A stretch of 64,000 nucleotides of DNA from an uncultured bacterium. GTDB taxonomy: Bacteria; Planctomycetota; UBA1135; UBA2386. A model generated the notes under the pieces. That model was not told the DNA's origin. It did no database searches and saw nothing but the letters and a program-made list of their open reading frames with translations. Of the stretch, positions 1 through 6,679 are shown piece after piece (position 1 is the stretch's first letter; each line of letters opens with the position of its first letter). Position numbers and translations under genes: made by a program. Where the stretch lies: assembly GCA_937906475.1 (NCBI GenBank), contig CALCZA010000113.1, positions 12,980-76,979 of the forward strand, written 5' to 3'.

Positions 1-2989
1 GCAGGTAGGTCAGCGCGGCGAGGTTCGGGTCGGCGTTGCGCAGTTCGCCATCGTGGATGCGGGCCTTTAAAGTACTAAGGGTCAGGCGTTCGGCGTCGGC
101 TGTGAACGCTGTTTCGAAGGCTTCGAACGAGTGCCCAAACAGCGAGAACGAACCGCGGCCCAGCGTTCCGATTAGTTGGCCTCCGTAGTCGGTTACCGAG
201 CTTTCACTCAGCGTGACCAGGCCGTGTAGGTTGACCACCTTGATGCCATCGCCGCCGGTGCCGAACAGCATGTCGACCCCGTCGAGGCCGATACTGCCAT
301 TGAGGGTCGTCTCAAATGGGCTTTTGCTGTCGCCGGTTGGGATCGCGAATCGCAAGCGCAGGCCATCGACGTCTGCTTGGCCGCGCAGTTGCCGTTCGCG
401 CACGGCCTGCCGCAGCGGTCCGGAGAAAAGGTTGGCGAGGCCGTTGTCGACGGGGAAATCCTTGGCGTGCACTTCGAACGAGATCTCGGTGCGACCATCT
501 TCCTTTGGCAGTTGCCGCACGCGGCCATTGGCACAGTGCACGGTCGCCTTGCCGATTTCGCCGCGCAAATCACGGAACGTCAGTTCGCCGTTCTCGATGT
601 GCAGTTCACCGGTCATGTGCTCAGCCGGCTTAGGCAACATCGGTGCTTCTGAACGCACATCGACAAGCTGTACCACGACGGCGAGGTTGTCGTCCTTGGA
701 GATGCCGCTGCGCTCGCGCACCACCAGGTCAATGCGACCCGATGGCTTCAGCGACGACCACGTGGCGAAGTCGAGTGCGCCTAACTCGCCAAGGCTCTTG
801 CCCAATTGTTCGCACAGTTCCAGGTCGCGCACGACGAACGCGAGGTCGCGCACGACGTTCTCTCCGGACTCAATGTGGCCAAGCAGTGCGAGCTGTGCCG
901 GCTCGGCATTTGGGATTTCCAAGAGACCGCGCAGGGCATCAAAGTTGATGCGTGCCTGCGGCCCAGATCCCTGTACGAGAACTTGGCCATTCAGGCCGGT
1001 GGCGCGCCACGGCGCGACTGGCAGCAACAGGTCCACATCGTGCAGCGACAAGCGCACATCGTGGAATAGCGGGTTCTGCGACTGCGGTCGCCAGACCTTG
1101 ATCTCGCCTGATAGGCGCCCGGTGGGGGCGGTCTTACGCCACTGATCTTCGAGTTCGGGCACGACCATCGCGACGCCCTTGAGCAGGTCCTCATCGAGAA
1201 CCAATTGCTCGGCGGTGATCACCGCTTCGAAGCACTCGTTGACGGTGTGGTCTTGGCGCAGCGGAATGCGACCGCGCATCGTCAAACCGCCATCGCCGTG
1301 GCGACCGGTCAGGTCAAAGCGGGCATCGTTCTGGCGAACACGAATGCTGCCGCGCAGGCTGTCGAGGCTGTAGGGGAAGCCTTCCCAGCGCATCGCCGCA
1401 TCGCGCGGCTTGATCTCGACGAAGAACCCGCCAGGTAGTTCGCTCTTTGGTCGCACCAGGACGTCCACTTCGGCGCGGCCACTTGGCGCGAGCTTCTTGT
1501 AGAGCTCACCGTCGTCTTGCAGCAGGGTCGCGAGAGCCTCCGCCAAGTCATCCGTGAACTTGATGCTGTCGCCGTGGATGTCGAGGCTGGTGTTTTCGCC
1601 GGACGGTCGGCGCAAATCGATGCGACCCTCGAGCTTCACTTTGCCGCCGCCTGCGACCGCCGGAATCGAGGCCTTAACATCCTCGAACAGCAGCCACTTG
1701 TCGCGCAACCGGACGCGGCCACTCGCTTGTTCCATTGCCATCGGGAACCCGATGCGATCCGCTTTGTCACCGAAGCCGCGGAACGTCATCTTGACGCCGC
1801 GCATGGTGAGATCCATCTCGGCAATGCCGTTTGGGCTGGTCGGGTTCTTCAGGTAGAGGGCGATGTCGCCGCGGCCCGCCGTAGGGCGTAGCGCTTTGAC
1901 GAGTTCCTTGCCGATCGGGAACGCGCGCAGGGCGGCCAGTGAGTCGGCGTCGACGACGATGTTGCGCCCATCTGCTCGAAGGTCAAACGACAAGCCGCTG
2001 CCGCCATCGTCCTTGGTTGGGTTGTTGAAGCCGTTGAGGTTGGTGGTGATCGATAGCTGACCGGTGTCGTTGTTCTGTGCGATCGTGGCCCGCATGGAGC
2101 CTTCACCGCGGGTGTCGGCGAACAGCGTCAGGTTCGCGTGGCGCACGATTGCCGGCAGGTTCTCCTGATTGACATGTACGTCGGTGCATGTTGCCAGCAG
2201 TTGCAGCGATGGCTTTTGGTTGCTGGCCGACTTCGGTGGTATGGAGAACGTCAGGCTCAACGATTCGATTTCGCCACCGAGTTCGACTTCTTGGTTCTCG
2301 ACGTGGGCGAGCCTTGCCAAGTAGGCGACGACTTGCTGGCTGCACTGCACGCCCGTGGTCGTGACCGTCAGCTGGGCGGCCCCGGTTTCGATGTCAACTT
2401 CGCCGTTCACGGTCAGGCGCGCGGCCGGTTCGGTCAGGCTCAGTTCGCCGCGGACCTGCAGTTTGTTAGGGTCGCTTGCGAGTGGTTCCACGATTACGTT
2501 GATTTGGTCGCAGGTCAGCGGCCGTTCGTTTTCGCAAAGATGCACGAGGGCCTTCCCGGAGCGGATTTCAACCACCGGGACATCCTGATGCTGGCTTTTG
2601 GGCGTCGTCGCGTCCTCTGGAGCAAACAGGTCGCTGAGCGTCGGCCATACCGGTCCGCACTCGAGGTTGAGGCCTTCGATGATGACGTGTCGTAATTGCA
2701 CGCCGCTGCCGAATAAGTCGGGTTGCACATCGATATTTGCCGTCTCGATGTGCGCAAGTCTGCGGTCGGGGTAGGTCGGATCGACCACCTGGAAGTCGCG
2801 AATCTGCAAGCGACCGGCTTCGAGATTGATGCTCGTAGCGCCGATCTCGGTCGGCGCAGTGAATGCTCGTTTCAGCTGTCGGCGCACGAATTCGGTCGCT
2901 ACATCCGAGTTTTGTAGCAAAGCCCAAGTTGTGATTCCGAGAACGGAAACGAGAGCTATCGACAGCATCAGGATGCGGCGCCAGTTCAT
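1..2989 (-). CDS. AsmA/TamB-like large envelope protein with N-terminal membrane anchor; partial, C-terminus lies left of the window
   Basis: Absent from the ORF track because it runs off the left edge. An ATG (cat at 2987-2989) opens the one minus frame with no listed sub-ORFs across 1-2989; listed minus ORFs there are all in the other two frames. My own translation begins MNWRRILMLSIALVSVLGITTWALL (TM anchor), followed by a long beta-rich soluble region. The family call is by resemblance only. Confidence 0.5.
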   Translation of the reverse strand, partial: MNWRRILMLSIALVSVLGITTWALLQNSDVATEFVRRQLKRAFTAPTEIGATSINLEAGRLQIRDFQVVDPTYPDRRLAHIETANIDVQPDLFGSGVQLRHVIIEGLNLECGPVWPTLSDLFAPEDATTPKSQHQDVPVVEIRSGKALVHLCENERPLTCDQINVIVEPLASDPNKLQVRGELSLTEPAARLTVNGEVDIETGAAQLTVTTTGVQCSQQVVAYLARLAHVENQEVELGGEIESLSLTFSIPPKSASNQKPSLQLLATCTDVHVNQENLPAIVRHANLTLFADTRGEGSMRATIAQNNDTGQLSITTNLNGFNNPTKDDGGSGLSFDLRADGRNIVVDADSLAALRAFPIGKELVKALRPTAGRGDIALYLKNPTSPNGIAEMDLTMRGVKMTFRGFGDKADRIGFPMAMEQASGRVRLRDKWLLFEDVKASIPAVAGGGKVKLEGRIDLRRPSGENTSLDIHGDSIKFTDDLAEALATLLQDDGELYKKLAPSGRAEVDVLVRPKSELPGGFFVEIKPRDAAMRWEGFPYSLDSLRGSIRVRQNDARFDLTGRHGDGGLTMRGRIPLRQDHTVNECFEAVITAEQLVLDEDLLKGVAMVVPELEDQWRKTAPTGRLSGEIKVWRPQSQNPLFHDVRLSLHDVDLLLPVAPWRATGLNGQVLVQGSGPQARINFDALRGLLEIPNAEPAQLALLGHIESGENVVRDLAFVVRDLELCEQLGKSLGELGALDFATWSSLKPSGRIDLVVRERSGISKDDNLAVVVQLVDVRSEAPMLPKPAEHMTGELHIENGELTFRDLRGEIGKATVHCANGRVRQLPKEDGRTEISFEVHAKDFPVDNGLANLFSGPLRQAVRERQLRGQADVDGLRLRFAIPTGDSKSPFETTLNGSIGLDGVDMLFGTGGDGIKVVNLHGLVTLSESSVTDYGGQLIGTLGRGSFSLFGHSFEAFETAFTADAERLTLSTLKARIHDGELRNADPNLAALTYL

Positions 2990-3242
2990 GCGGCGTTCAG
3001 TCTAGCCGATGTTGGTAGTTGCTTGATACGTTGATGACGACGTTCCCGAACTCGTTGTTTCGGCCCGTTCTACGCCGTTTGCGGCAGATCCCGAGGATTG
3101 GGTCGAAACGGCCGAAAGGAAGCTGAATTCGAAGGTTCCACGCAAGCGTGCCTACCAAGCGAATGTTGTGCCACTGCCGATTGTCGAGTTCGCAAACGTC
3201 CAGAACGGGCTTCAAAACGCAGTTTCCCTATCGTTTTTGTTG

Positions 3243-3271
3243 TTGACAGTCGCGCGAATGCCGTCAAACTT
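3243..3271 (+). promoter_or_regulatory. Possible sigma70-type promoter for the histone-fold gene
   Basis: Perfect -35 hexamer TTGACA at 3243-3248. Only a weak -10 candidate (cAAAcT / AAACTT) lies 16-17 nt downstream, about 75 nt upstream of the ATG at 3345. Confidence 0.2.
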
Positions 3272-3344
3272 CCGCCTGCTCGCTGGGGGGCACGGCACTT
3301 CGTCGTGACCGGGCGAGCAAGATCCTTAGAAAGCAGAGATTCAA

Positions 3345-3563
3345 ATGGCTGCCAAGAAGAAGACAAAGAAGAAGGCCGCGAAGGCGAAGGGCCCGGTTGA
3401 GTTGATCATTTCGAAGTCGCGCACCAAGGGCGCGGTTAAGAAGTCGAACGTCTCCTCCGAGTTCTACGGCGCTCTCGACCAAGCTGTTCGCGGGATGATC
3501 GCGGGCGCAGAAGGCCGCGCTTCGGCCAACGGCCGCAAGACGCTCCGTCCGCAAGACCTGTAA
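3345..3563 (+). CDS. Small bacterial histone-fold (DUF1931 / Bdellovibrio-type histone-like) protein with a Lys/Ala-rich N-terminal tail
   Basis: A 72-aa ORF with high GC3. The tail is MAAKKKTKKKAAKAKGP. The C-terminal half, NVSSEFYGALDQAVRGMIAGAEGRASANGRKTLRPQDL, fits histone-fold alpha2-L2-start of alpha3. It carries the RKT(V/I/L)xxxD(I/L) signature. A strong terminator follows. Confidence 0.7.
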   Translation: MAAKKKTKKKAAKAKGPVELIISKSRTKGAVKKSNVSSEFYGALDQAVRGMIAGAEGRASANGRKTLRPQDL

Positions 3564-3653
3564 GCTTCGGCTTACGAGTTGGATCAACTGGCCTAGCCAG
3601 GTGATCTGACAAGGCTGAAGGGAGTTCGCTCCCTGGTCAATCAGCTCGCAACG

Positions 3654-3697
3654 CGACCCGAACATCTCACTGAGGTGTTCGGGTCGTGTTCGTTTGT
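3654..3697 (+). terminator. Rho-independent terminator after the histone-fold gene
   Basis: Perfect 11-bp stem CGACCCGAACA / TGTTCGGGTCG (3654-3664 / 3676-3686), followed by the T-rich tract TGTTCGTTTGT. Confidence 0.7.
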
Positions 3698-3752
3698 AGC
3701 TGAGCCTTGAGGATGCGCGCGCGCTACGCCTCGTCGCCTACGTGCTCGTCGC

Positions 3753-4538
3753 CTAGGTCTGGTCGCCGAGGTCGCTTTCGACCTTCAGCCGGGCAAACGC
3801 CGCTCGCTCTGCTTCGATCAGCTTGGTCCGGAGCTCTTCCGAAACCGCTTCCATCGTCGCGTCATCAGTGTCCTTGTCGATCGTCATTGGGTCGCCGTAG
3901 TGCACGATCACTCGCGCGAACAGCTTGGGGATGCACATGCGATCCCAGCTCTTGAAGCGCCACGCTCGGCTCATCGCAGTCGATACTGGGATGATCGGTA
4001 CGCCCGTCGCGCGCGCTAGCCACGCTGCACCGGTATTGATGCTGTGCCGTGGCCCTCGCGGCCCATCGGGGGTGATCACCAGTTGGCCGTCCGCCGTCAG
4101 CAATTCGTGCATTTCCCGCATCGCCGTCGCGCCACGCTTGCTCATCGAGCCACGCACGACCCGGTAGCCGAACTTGTTGAGCGCGCGCTTCGCAAGCCCG
4201 CCGTCATCGCTGGGCGACACCAGCACCCCGATGTTGCGGCGGCAGTGGAGCTTGATCGGCATCAGCGCGAGCATGCGGCCGTGCCACATCGTGCAAACCC
4301 ACGGCCGCTCGCTAGCCAGTAGCTCAAGGCCTGCGTCACCGGTGCGTTTGATGCGCCAAGTTCGTGCGATCAGCCACAAAATTAACGGGGCCAGGGACTC
4401 GACCAGTACGGTTCCGAGCCGTCGCCGAAAGCGCCGAAATCGGCTGCGACCGGCCTTATTCCTACCTTGGGCCTCGCGTTCGGCGGTCCATTTCGCGACC
4501 ACTTCACGTCGAGCCTGCCTTTGCTCGCGTGCATCCAC
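3753..4538 (-). CDS. DUF374-family (lysophospholipid acyltransferase-like) protein
   Basis: 261 aa. Core segments GVLVSPSDDGGLAKRALNKFGYRVVRGS and LVITPDGPRGPR, plus one N-terminal TM, resemble DUF374 proteins commonly linked to Kdo/LPS genes. Confidence 0.7.
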   Translation of the reverse strand: MDAREQRQARREVVAKWTAEREAQGRNKAGRSRFRRFRRRLGTVLVESLAPLILWLIARTWRIKRTGDAGLELLASERPWVCTMWHGRMLALMPIKLHCRRNIGVLVSPSDDGGLAKRALNKFGYRVVRGSMSKRGATAMREMHELLTADGQLVITPDGPRGPRHSINTGAAWLARATGVPIIPVSTAMSRAWRFKSWDRMCIPKLFARVIVHYGDPMTIDKDTDDATMEAVSEELRTKLIEAERAAFARLKVESDLGDQT

Positions 4539-4556: not shown

Positions 4557-5144
4557 ATGGCCGGTGTCGGCGTAGTAAGGAATGGCAGGTTTCTGCTACA
4601 AACTCGGCCACGTTTCCCGACCCAATCGCGCATGCAATCCCGTTCCTCGTCGGCAGTCGCCGCTACGCCCGATCAGTTGGCCGCAGTTGATGCGGCGATC
4701 TCCCGACTCGCCACCATGCGTGGCGCGTGCTTGCCAATGATGCACGCGATCCAAGCAGAACTTGGGTTCGTGCCTCATGAAGCAGTCCAACGCATCGCCG
4801 ACTCGCTCAATCTGTCGCGCGCCGATGTGCATGGCGTGCTGACTTACTACCACGACTTCCGCTCGGAGGCTCCGGGTTGCCACGTGCTCAAGGTTTGCCG
4901 CGCCGAGTCGTGTCAGGCGATGGGTAGCGAGAAACTTGAGGACCACCTGTGTGAGAAGCACGGAGTCGCGATGGGGGAGACCTGCGCCGACGGCGAAGTG
5001 ACGGTCGAGCCGGTCTATTGCCTCGGCAACTGCGCGCTATCACCAGCGGTGATGCTAGACGGCAAGGTCTACGGCCGGGTTAGTGCGGAGCGCTTGGATG
5101 CCCTGTTGCAGCGAGCCAAGAAGAGCACCGGAGGCCAGTCGTGA
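4557..5144 (+). CDS. fdsG: NAD-dependent formate dehydrogenase gamma subunit (NuoE-like [2Fe-2S] protein)
   Basis: Thioredoxin-like 2Fe-2S Cys pattern VCRAESCQAMG ... YCLGNCALSP. A 4-nt overlap links it to the downstream NuoF-like gene. The true start may be the ATG at 4632 (MQSRSS...). Confidence 0.8.
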   Translation: MAGVGVVRNGRFLLQTRPRFPTQSRMQSRSSSAVAATPDQLAAVDAAISRLATMRGACLPMMHAIQAELGFVPHEAVQRIADSLNLSRADVHGVLTYYHDFRSEAPGCHVLKVCRAESCQAMGSEKLEDHLCEKHGVAMGETCADGEVTVEPVYCLGNCALSPAVMLDGKVYGRVSAERLDALLQRAKKSTGGQS

Positions 5145-6679
5145 GCGTCACCATCTACGTGCCGTGCGACAGTGCAGCGTTGTCCCTCGGCGCCAATGAA
5201 GTCGCCGACGCTGTTGTTCGCGAAGCCGGTTCCCGCAACCTCGAAGTGCAATTGGTGCGCAATGGCTCGCGCGGCATGTTGTGGCTCGAGACGATGCTCG
5301 AAGTTGCGACCGATGCCGGCCGCATTGCTTATGGGCCGGTCACCGAAGGCGACGTCGCCAGTCTGTTCGACGCCGATGTGATGGCCGGCGGCGAGCACGC
5401 GCTGCGTCTCGGCAAGACCGACGACCTGCCGTGGATGCAAAAGCAGACGCGGTTGACGTTCGCGCGCGTTGGCGTGACGGATCCGGTCAGCCTCGACGAC
5501 TACAGCGAACACGGTGGTCTGGTTGGCCTGAAGAAGGCGCTGACCATGGAACCTTCGGCCATCGTCGAAGCAGTGGTTGCGTCCGGTTTGCGCGGTCGCG
5601 GCGGTGCTGGCTTCCCAGCTGGCATTAAGTGGCGCACGGTGCTCGGTGCTGCAGCGGACCAGAAATACATTGCGTGCAACGCCGACGAAGGCGATTCGGG
5701 CACGTTCTCCGATCGCATGATCATGGAGGGCGATCCCTACGTGCTGCTCGAAGGCATGGTGATCGCCGGCCTCGCCGTTGACGCGACCGAGGGCTACATC
5801 TACCTGCGCTCTGAGTATCCCGATGCGTACGTCGTGCTGACGTCCGCGATTGAGCGGGCGCGCGCCGCTGGCTGGCTCGGCAGTGACGTGCTCGGTTCTG
5901 GCAAGGCGTTCGACGTGCATGTTCGTCTCGGTGCTGGCAGCTACGTCTGCGGCGAAGAGACGGCAATGCTCGAAAGCCTCGAAGGCAAGCGCGGCATCGT
6001 GCGCGCCAAGCCGCCGTTGCCGGCGTTGGAAGGTCTGTGGGGTAAACCGACCGTCGTCAATAACGTCATGACGCTGGCCGCCATACCGTACATTCTCGAT
6101 CAAGGTGGCGAAGCCTACGCGGCCTACGGCACTGGCCGCAGTCTTGGCACGCTGCCCTACCAACTGGCTGGCAACATCAAGCAAGGCGGTTTGGTCGAGG
6201 TGCCACTCGGCGTCACTATTCGCGAACTGCTCTACGACTTCGGTGGTGGTTCGGCGACCGGTCGCCCGATTCGTGCGATCCAGGTTGGTGGCCCGTTGGG
6301 TGCCTATCTGCCTGAATCGAAGTTCGACACGCCGGCGGACTATGAATCCCTGTCAGCGGCCGGCGGGCTGTTGGGCCACGGCGGCATCGTTGCGTTCGAC
6401 GACACCGTCGACATGTCGAAGATGGCGCGCTACGCGATGGAGTTCTGTGCGATCGAATCGTGCGGCAAGTGCACGCCGTGCCGGATCGGCAGCACCCGCG
6501 GCGTCGAAGTCGTCGACCGTTTGGTCGAAGGCAAGAACCGCAAGAAGGACGAGGCGCTGCTGCGCGACCTGTGTGACACGCTGACCAGTGCGTCGTTGTG
6601 TGCCATGGGCGGCTTGACCCCGCTGCCGGTTCTGAGCGCGCTCGACCACTTCCCGGAAGACTTCGCTAAGTCCGAGTAG
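5141..6679 (+). CDS. fdsB: NAD-dependent formate dehydrogenase beta subunit (NuoF-like, FMN/NAD-binding, 4Fe-4S)
   Basis: 512 aa. Motifs: GLRGRGGAGFPAGIKW (FMN/NADH site), CNADEGDSGTF and ESCGKCTPCRIG (4Fe-4S). It has the N-terminal thioredoxin-like extension typical of FdsB. Confidence 0.85.
   Translation: MSVTIYVPCDSAALSLGANEVADAVVREAGSRNLEVQLVRNGSRGMLWLETMLEVATDAGRIAYGPVTEGDVASLFDADVMAGGEHALRLGKTDDLPWMQKQTRLTFARVGVTDPVSLDDYSEHGGLVGLKKALTMEPSAIVEAVVASGLRGRGGAGFPAGIKWRTVLGAAADQKYIACNADEGDSGTFSDRMIMEGDPYVLLEGMVIAGLAVDATEGYIYLRSEYPDAYVVLTSAIERARAAGWLGSDVLGSGKAFDVHVRLGAGSYVCGEETAMLESLEGKRGIVRAKPPLPALEGLWGKPTVVNNVMTLAAIPYILDQGGEAYAAYGTGRSLGTLPYQLAGNIKQGGLVEVPLGVTIRELLYDFGGGSATGRPIRAIQVGGPLGAYLPESKFDTPADYESLSAAGGLLGHGGIVAFDDTVDMSKMARYAMEFCAIESCGKCTPCRIGSTRGVEVVDRLVEGKNRKKDEALLRDLCDTLTSASLCAMGGLTPLPVLSALDHFPEDFAKSE

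Follow-up and report, generated by a model that had tools for sequence, protein, structure and literature searches.

A face-to-face-type histone with a basic N-terminal tail in an uncultured member of the Planctomycetota

A short gene of an uncultured planctomycetal bacterium encodes a histone which by sequence, profile and fold comparisons belongs to the face-to-face (FtF) type and which carries a lysine-rich N-terminal tail. The gene was found in a stretch of 64,000 nucleotides (in the following the window) with a G+C content of 61%, and its features are listed in Table 1. The protein is an uncharacterised new example of a rare, recently described and already catalogued family and not a new kind of protein. 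It has been published that the FtF subtype exists, that Planctomycetota have it and that tails are prevalent, and the current picture is unchanged by our results. A conserved promoter-like element, a leader RNA structure and the synteny of the locus are the modest new details. Bacterial histones have reportedly been characterised only from 2023 to 2025, and only two of them, HBb and HLp, are said to have been studied in depth.

Table 1. Features of the histone locus and of the HU-family gene within the 64,000-nt window.
Feature	Position	Strand	Basis
FtF-type alpha3-truncated histone gene with basic N-terminal tail, 72 codons and TAA	3345..3563	+	ORF list, homologues, profile, Foldseek
Lys-rich, predicted disordered tail MAAKKKTKKKAAKAKGP, codons 1-17	3345..3395	+	pLDDT, relatives, codon 2, Shine-Dalgarno
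Histone fold core L20-L72: alpha1 motif SKSRTK, alpha2 39-61, L2 motif RKT, one-turn alpha3	3402..3560	+	DSSP, hhalign
Predicted tetramer-interface residues R58, N62, R64 and RD clamp R64-D71 (codons R58-L72)	3516..3560	+	Invariant in 40 relatives
DUF748/YhdP-like membrane protein, ~1200 aa, divergent upstream, runs off the window start	2..2989	-	Frame, domain match, synteny
DUF374/acyltransferase-like protein, convergent downstream	3753..4538	-	Pfam DUF374, E=1.7e-22
HU-family gene, same genome segment	51114..51503	+	Pfam Bac_DNA_binding, E=2.6e-27
Promoter-like element TTGACA (3243-3248), 16 nt, CAAACT (3265-3270)	3243..3270	+	Rarity, conservation
5'-leader stem-loop, outer stem GYTCGC/GCGARC around an inner hairpin	3278..3318	+	RNAalifold covariation
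Three 3'-UTR hairpins (3559-3576, 3578-3610, 3619-3634)	3559..3634	+	RNA fold
Intrinsic-terminator-like hairpin (19 pairs, loop ACU) and U-rich tail	3650..3699	+	RNA fold

The open reading frame is real and encodes a histone-fold protein. Its translation is exactly that of the initial annotation, which had described 72 amino acids with a lysine-rich tail of 17 residues. Conservation of the frame in relatives, the lack of which was named there as a refutation, is extensive: 1245 homologous clusters at E<=1e-3, mostly from planctomycetal metagenome-assembled genomes (MAGs), were found in a large protein collection, and 458 of 185,579 species genomes encode a relative.

The AlphaFold2 model of the protein has a mean pLDDT of 72.5, and the alpha2 region is its most confident part (means of 10-residue blocks 88-92). 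On this model DSSP assigns one helix to residues 39-61 (alpha2, 23 residues) and one to residues 69-71 (alpha3, a single turn). Alpha1 is weakly modelled in the monomer (pLDDT 54-69), with a helix assigned to residues 24-27 only. The C-terminus reads GRKTLRPQDL and is directly followed by the stop codon, the chain ending one residue (L72) past D71, and the truncation of alpha3 that had been noted from the sequence is thus borne out. In a Foldseek search of the PDB the best matches of the model are all histones, led by HTkC, HLp and HBb (probability 1.00, target-normalised TM 0.67-0.74) and followed by eukaryotic histones and NF-Y. The Foldseek E-values are weak, the best being 7.7e-3, because the histone domain is tiny. 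In alpha3-truncated prokaryotic histones alpha2 is shortened and alpha3 comprises just 3-4 residues (Schwab et al. 2024, PMC11390915); the window protein combines the histone fold with an alpha3 of this length and the RxTxxxxD (RD clamp) motif at its C-terminus.

The curated models of Pfam and NCBIfam miss this family. Scans of the window protein with both collections gave no histone match and a single spurious sub-threshold match to Secretin_N_2. Among 40 relatives PF09123 (DUF1931) gave sub-threshold matches to 20, with a best E-value of 0.0059, and PF00808 matched three weakly.

The subtype was assigned from sequence, profile and fold comparisons. When the single sequence was compared with the PDB sequences by phmmer, HTkC (9f2c) was matched at E=1.3e-4 and HBb at 0.34. 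A family profile based on an alignment of 40 relatives (A1) gave E-values of 1.3e-9 for HTkC, 2.2e-5 for HLp (9qt0), 0.28 for HBb and 0.43 for HmvA. In this alignment the columns I21, I22, S23, K24, R26, K28, F40, Y41, R58, N62, R64, T66 and D71 are invariant, which includes R64, T66 and D71 of the RD clamp stretch R64-K-T66-L-R-P-Q-D71. An HMM search of 1.84 billion cluster representatives yielded 758 sequences at E<=1e-3. Among them are tail-less sequences of 55-56 aa, whose numbering reproduces K11/R41/N45/R47/T49/D54 of the Haloferax FtF histone D4GZE0. When alignment A1 was compared with the tail-less FtF set by hhalign, the two aligned without gaps and to the same end residue, with invariant columns in common (probability 99.75%, E=2.2e-27). 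The columns of R58, N62, R64 and D71 are also invariant in 19 tail-less FtF sequences.

These residues are of special significance in HLp from Leptospira perolatii (PDB 9QT0/9QT1/9QT2), a tetramer that wraps about 60 bp of DNA and is held together by R49, S52 and N53 in one monomer against F63, T61 and R55 in the monomer facing it (Hu et al. 2025, PMC12701072). R49, N53 and R55 are conserved in the predicted tetrameric bacterial FtF histones, an RD clamp is formed by R55 and D62, and Planctomycetota are among the lineages that bear FtF histones (PMC12701072). The window pattern R58-x3-N62-x-R64-x6-D71-L72(end) equals R49, N53, R55, D62 and F63(end) of HLp with an offset of 9. Both proteins consist of a single histone fold with a one-turn alpha3, share the identical Arg-x3-Asn-x-Arg spacing and the RD clamp, end one residue past the clamp Asp and have basic residues for DNA contact where alpha1 begins. 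On the other hand they are only about 27% identical. HLp has a short N-terminal segment, the first 6-7 residues of which are unresolved in the crystals, whereas the window histone has a tail of 17-19 residues with a charge of about +8. HU is absent from Leptospira but present in the window genome, and the gene neighbourhood is SMC/MAP in Leptospira and DUF748/DUF374 here.

Since the interface pattern is that of HLp and is invariant across the family, the window histone is of the FtF type and neither a Bdellovibrio-type dimer histone nor a DUF1931 pseudodimer, to both of which it had been related in the initial annotation. The best match in both sequence (35% identity) and fold is the FtF histone HTkC of the archaeon Thermococcus kodakarensis (PDB 9F2C; Schwab et al. 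2024, PMC11390915), with which it shares the alpha1 motif xKS[KR]xK, the GRKTL motif and the truncated alpha3. However, HTkC is archaeal and tail-less, and it has Glu, not Asn, at the position of N62, which is a counterpoint to the FtF reading.

Two further types were considered and rejected. DUF1931 proteins (PF09123; Aquifex Aq_328, Thermus; PDB 1R4V, 1WWI) lend their name to many relatives at NCBI, and half of the relatives match PF09123 below threshold. These proteins are doublets with two folds per chain and lack the DNA-binding residues, whereas the window histone consists of a single 55-aa fold, keeps the DNA-contact residues and has no PF09123 match at E<=10. The nucleosomal archaeal type (HMf, PF00808), with its alpha3 of about 10 residues and tetramerisation by a four-helix bundle, does not apply either, as alpha3 is truncated and the window protein has no PF00808 match. 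The family profile also retrieved doublets of about 115-125 aa with two FtF-like folds per chain (P0161-P0163, P0166, P0172, P0175, P0187 and others), which are distinct from the classical DUF1931 pseudodimers.

FtF histones are characterised by a torus-shaped homotetramer, predicted or observed, and by the non-specific binding and wrapping of about 50-60 bp of DNA. From these comparisons the following mode of action can be proposed. Two chains would form a histone-fold dimer, and two dimers would close face to face into a tetramer through a hydrogen-bond network of R58, N62, R64 and the C-terminal turn. The tetramer would hold about 60 bp of DNA by the backbone, without sequence specificity, and would bend it or wrap it around itself. 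Contact would be made by the start of alpha1 (K24, S25, R26, K28, K32) and by the L1/L2 loops (K65, T66); these residues align with the DNA contacts A13, S14, K15, K17, K21, T56 and T57 of HLp, and in the window histone the positions are basic or polar and conserved. Four disordered tails, each with a charge of about +8, would project from the tetramer, provide electrostatic affinity for DNA and charge neutralisation, and may bridge neighbouring DNA. Transcription of the gene on its own, from a conserved promoter with a near-consensus -35 box through a structured leader to a strong terminator, would be an expression layout consistent with an abundant chromatin protein that works beside HU. We infer the tetramer of the window histone from its residues and homology; tetramer formation, DNA wrapping, the role of the tail and a high abundance are what HLp and HTkC lead us to expect. 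Taken as a whole, the likely answer is in our opinion a torus of two dimers with non-specific DNA binding, which wraps about 60 bp in the manner of HLp, gains affinity from its tails and acts alongside HU.

It is improbable that the protein is instead a dimer-only histone, which would bend or coat DNA as dimers and form no wrapping tetramer. The model for such a protein is HBb (Bd0055; PDB 8CMP, 8FVX), the dimer histone of Bdellovibrio bacteriovorus; its dimers bind and bend DNA. HBb turns up in the comparisons of both fold and sequence, the two groups are part of one alpha3-truncated family, and the RKT...D motif, the alpha1 lysines, a similar size and the coexistence with HU are common to HBb and the window histone. 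Nevertheless, bacterial dimer histones such as HBb are defined by the absence of the FtF interface residues R48 and N52 (numbering of the FtF logo; Schwab et al., PMC11390915). HBb has Ser and Asp in place of the tetramer Arg and Asn, while the equivalents of R48 and N52 are present and invariant in the window family. The similarity to HBb is also marginal (E=0.28-0.34), whereas the profile matches the FtF structures. Therefore, the assignment to the HBb type was rejected and the FtF tetramer is the preferred reading.

The neighbourhood of the gene is widely conserved. The initial annotation had placed it between divergent neighbours, which is correct for the upstream DUF748 gene but not for the DUF374 gene downstream, as the latter is convergent. 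The upstream minus-strand frame is free of stop codons for at least 1000 codons, from about 2989 past the window start. Its divergent position is kept in 57 of 85 related loci (L001-L087), with protein identities down to 24%, and the position of the DUF374 gene in 39 of the 85. The order RuvX - NTP_transferase - DUF748 on the minus strand, histone on the plus strand and DUF374 on the minus strand is widely kept. Genes for NuoE-like (2Fe-2S thioredoxin-like) and NuoF-like (Complex1_51K) proteins lie just downstream (4557-6679, plus strand), and in four loci (L001-L004) a large formate-dehydrogenase/NuoG-like molybdopterin gene is located further downstream of the NuoE/NuoF-like genes.

The pairing with DUF748 could be taken to mean that the protein, while having a histone fold, mainly serves a role other than global chromatin, as a specific regulator, as an RNA- or ribosome-associated basic protein or as a partner of DUF748. 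A prokaryotic protein with a histone fold need not be an organiser of the genome, as has been cautioned (Schwab et al. 2024, PMC11390915), and HU is also encoded in the window, where the HU-like gene reported earlier could be verified by its Pfam domain. Such a role is nonetheless less probable still than a dimer-only histone. The canonical DNA-contact positions are conserved and basic, and the closest characterised relatives bind DNA non-specifically. As for DUF748, the two genes are transcribed divergently and do not form an operon, and the relatives from other phyla keep the histone without a DUF748 neighbour. In the HU-family protein itself the Bac_DNA_binding domain is followed by about 35 further residues, which form an acidic C-terminal extension (GEDVGDLSLDDDDS...).

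In the databases the relatives are named 'DUF1931 domain-containing protein' (many NCBI entries) or 'histone H3/H4' (JGI). The best 80 of the 458 genome matches are all from uncultured organisms, nearly all of them MAGs. Most of these 80 belong to the Planctomycetota and some to Eisenbacteria, Krumholzibacteriia, Latescibacterota and Methylomirabilota. The planctomycetal clade is large and extremely conserved, consists of uncultured organisms among the best 80 of the 458, and its tails are longer and more basic than any others in the group. Metagenome assemblies contain the exact window histone in 84 blocks. No second histone was revealed in the window when its six frames were all searched with the profile. 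On one JGI contig (P0001, 1117 nt) the protein is 100% identical over 72 residues, but the stop codon is replaced by Leu and 11 extra residues (LASAYELGQLA, compare window 3561-3599) follow; this readthrough reflects strain variation or else an error of sequencing.

The tail MAAKKKTKKKAAKAKGP comprises eight Lys and no acidic residues among its 17 amino acids, and its pLDDT is below 50 at residues 1-3 and 6-13. All relatives examined begin with Met-Ala followed by a K/R-rich stretch, and the tail is present in each of them. The segment that precedes LIISK, compared in 70 distinct genomic sequences, measures 9-51 aa (median 15), contains 2-22 K+R (median 5) and consists of 32% Lys and 26% Ala. 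An open upstream frame that begins with ATG-GCN and keeps a K/R-rich composition was seen at each of about 80 loci, the tail length being read in the frame of the histone. Codon 2 specifies Ala in 69 of 69 sequences and codon 3 in 56 of 69, and at both positions all four codons (GCT, GCA, GCG, GCC) are used. The same ATG is preceded, at 7-9 nt, by a GGAGG-type Shine-Dalgarno sequence in the relatives that belong to Methylomirabilota, Krumholzibacteriia, Latescibacterota and Eisenbacteria. On this comparative evidence the tail is real and translated, and the 53-aa forms in the databases, which begin with M/LIISK, are therefore start-site miscalls. That the tail is untranslated and the true protein a tail-less histone of 53 aa starting at the TTG/ATG of L20, for which several such NCBI entries and the case of HLp, where the shorter form was judged authentic, might be quoted, is hardly credible in the face of the open K/R-rich frames, the synonymous Ala codons and the Shine-Dalgarno sequences just described.

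The initial annotation had regarded a basic tail as atypical for a bacterial histone. This view does not hold: bacterial FtF histones often bear positive tails (Schwab et al. 2024, PMC11390915), and the tail of the window histone is not unusual for this group and already covered by the literature. The tail had also been called eukaryote-like, which is justified for its composition but not as a statement of homology. It is a disordered basic N-terminal extension, a character of the eukaryotic type, and is kept compositionally in all relatives. The tails of eukaryotic and Asgard histones and the H1-like bacterial tails of Hc1 and Hc2 are likewise disordered, rich in Lys and Ala, variable in length and placed beside a DNA-binding fold. 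The likeness to the window tail is one of composition, without demonstrated sequence homology and without conserved modification motifs; no homology signal is possible because the sequence is of low complexity.

According to its sequence signals, the histone gene is a stand-alone transcription unit with its own promoter, leader and terminator. This agrees with the earlier description as a solitary gene, as both flanking genes are on the minus strand. The TTGACA box named there was located and is kept in relatives: of 69 distinct upstream regions, 59 have TTGAC[AT] at a distance of 81-135 nt upstream of the ATG. The composite TTGACA-N16-CAAACT occurs once in the 64-kb window, compared to 0.05 expected occurrences, and comparative footprinting identified the CAAACT box as near-invariant in the syntenic planctomycetal group. 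A generic sigma-70/terminator scanner reported neither a promoter nor a terminator in 2900-3800, being silent because the -10 box agrees with the consensus at no more than 3 of 6 positions. This silence was not accepted as proof of absence, since both elements are revealed by comparative footprinting and RNA folding.

The predicted stem-loop of the 5'-leader is supported by covariation. RNAalifold found 14 consensus pairs, six of them with compensatory changes. In the alignment 96.3% of the cells are paired, compared to 21-51% when the partners are slid, and the covariation score was reached by none of 500 shuffles. The compensatory changes include exchanges of GC and AU across 35 species, and many pairs are G-U, which are valid on the plus strand only. 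A scan of 2900-3800 against Rfam revealed no family for the leader or the 3' UTR, the sole match being a chance miRNA on the terminator. In a test for dispersed repeats the degenerate leader pattern occurred at chance level elsewhere, and it missed the GCTCGC/GCGAGC variant of the leader itself, so that this test shows just the absence of an excess of similar elements. The stem-loop might serve to stabilise the mRNA or to autoregulate the gene.

Four hairpins are predicted in the 3' UTR (RNA fold of 3555-3705: -83.1 kcal/mol, z=-7.4). The first three, two of which have UUCG tetraloops and the first of which encloses the TAA stop, are kept in the closest relatives only (L008-L010). The last one had been described as a terminator with a perfect stem of 11 bp. 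A strong hairpin is indeed predicted at 3650-3690; its perfect GC-rich core measures 10 bp (3655-3664 / 3676-3685) and extends to 19 pairs. An equivalent hairpin, GACCCGG...CCGGGTCGYGTTCGTT, is found 80-130 nt past the stop in most syntenic planctomycetal relatives. Judged from the features of promoter, leader and terminator, the gene is probably expressed independently and strongly.

The conserved promoter, leader and terminator represent a defined expression cassette, with the leader as a candidate cis-regulatory RNA, and the 72-aa protein lends itself to the question of the contribution that a basic tail makes to a minimal histone tetramer. One might go further and imagine a regulated chromatin system, in which the Lys tail, with its 9 to 51 residues and a charge of +2 to +22 depending on the species, tunes compaction or is reversibly modified as in eukaryotes, and in which the leader stem-loop sets the histone dosage by autoregulation or stabilisation. 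We regard this as a speculative and rather unlikely extension. Neither the tuning by the tail nor the control of dosage by the leader is known to have been described for bacterial histones.

Upstream of the -35 box, at about 3188-3242 of the plus strand, further conserved blocks were observed in the syntenic relatives. Their consensus, GGAAAC-GYCGAGAACGGGCTC-N(7-9)-GTTTCC and then a T-run, contains an inverted repeat of GGAAAC and GTTTCC. These blocks may be a regulator site or the promoter of the divergent DUF748 gene.
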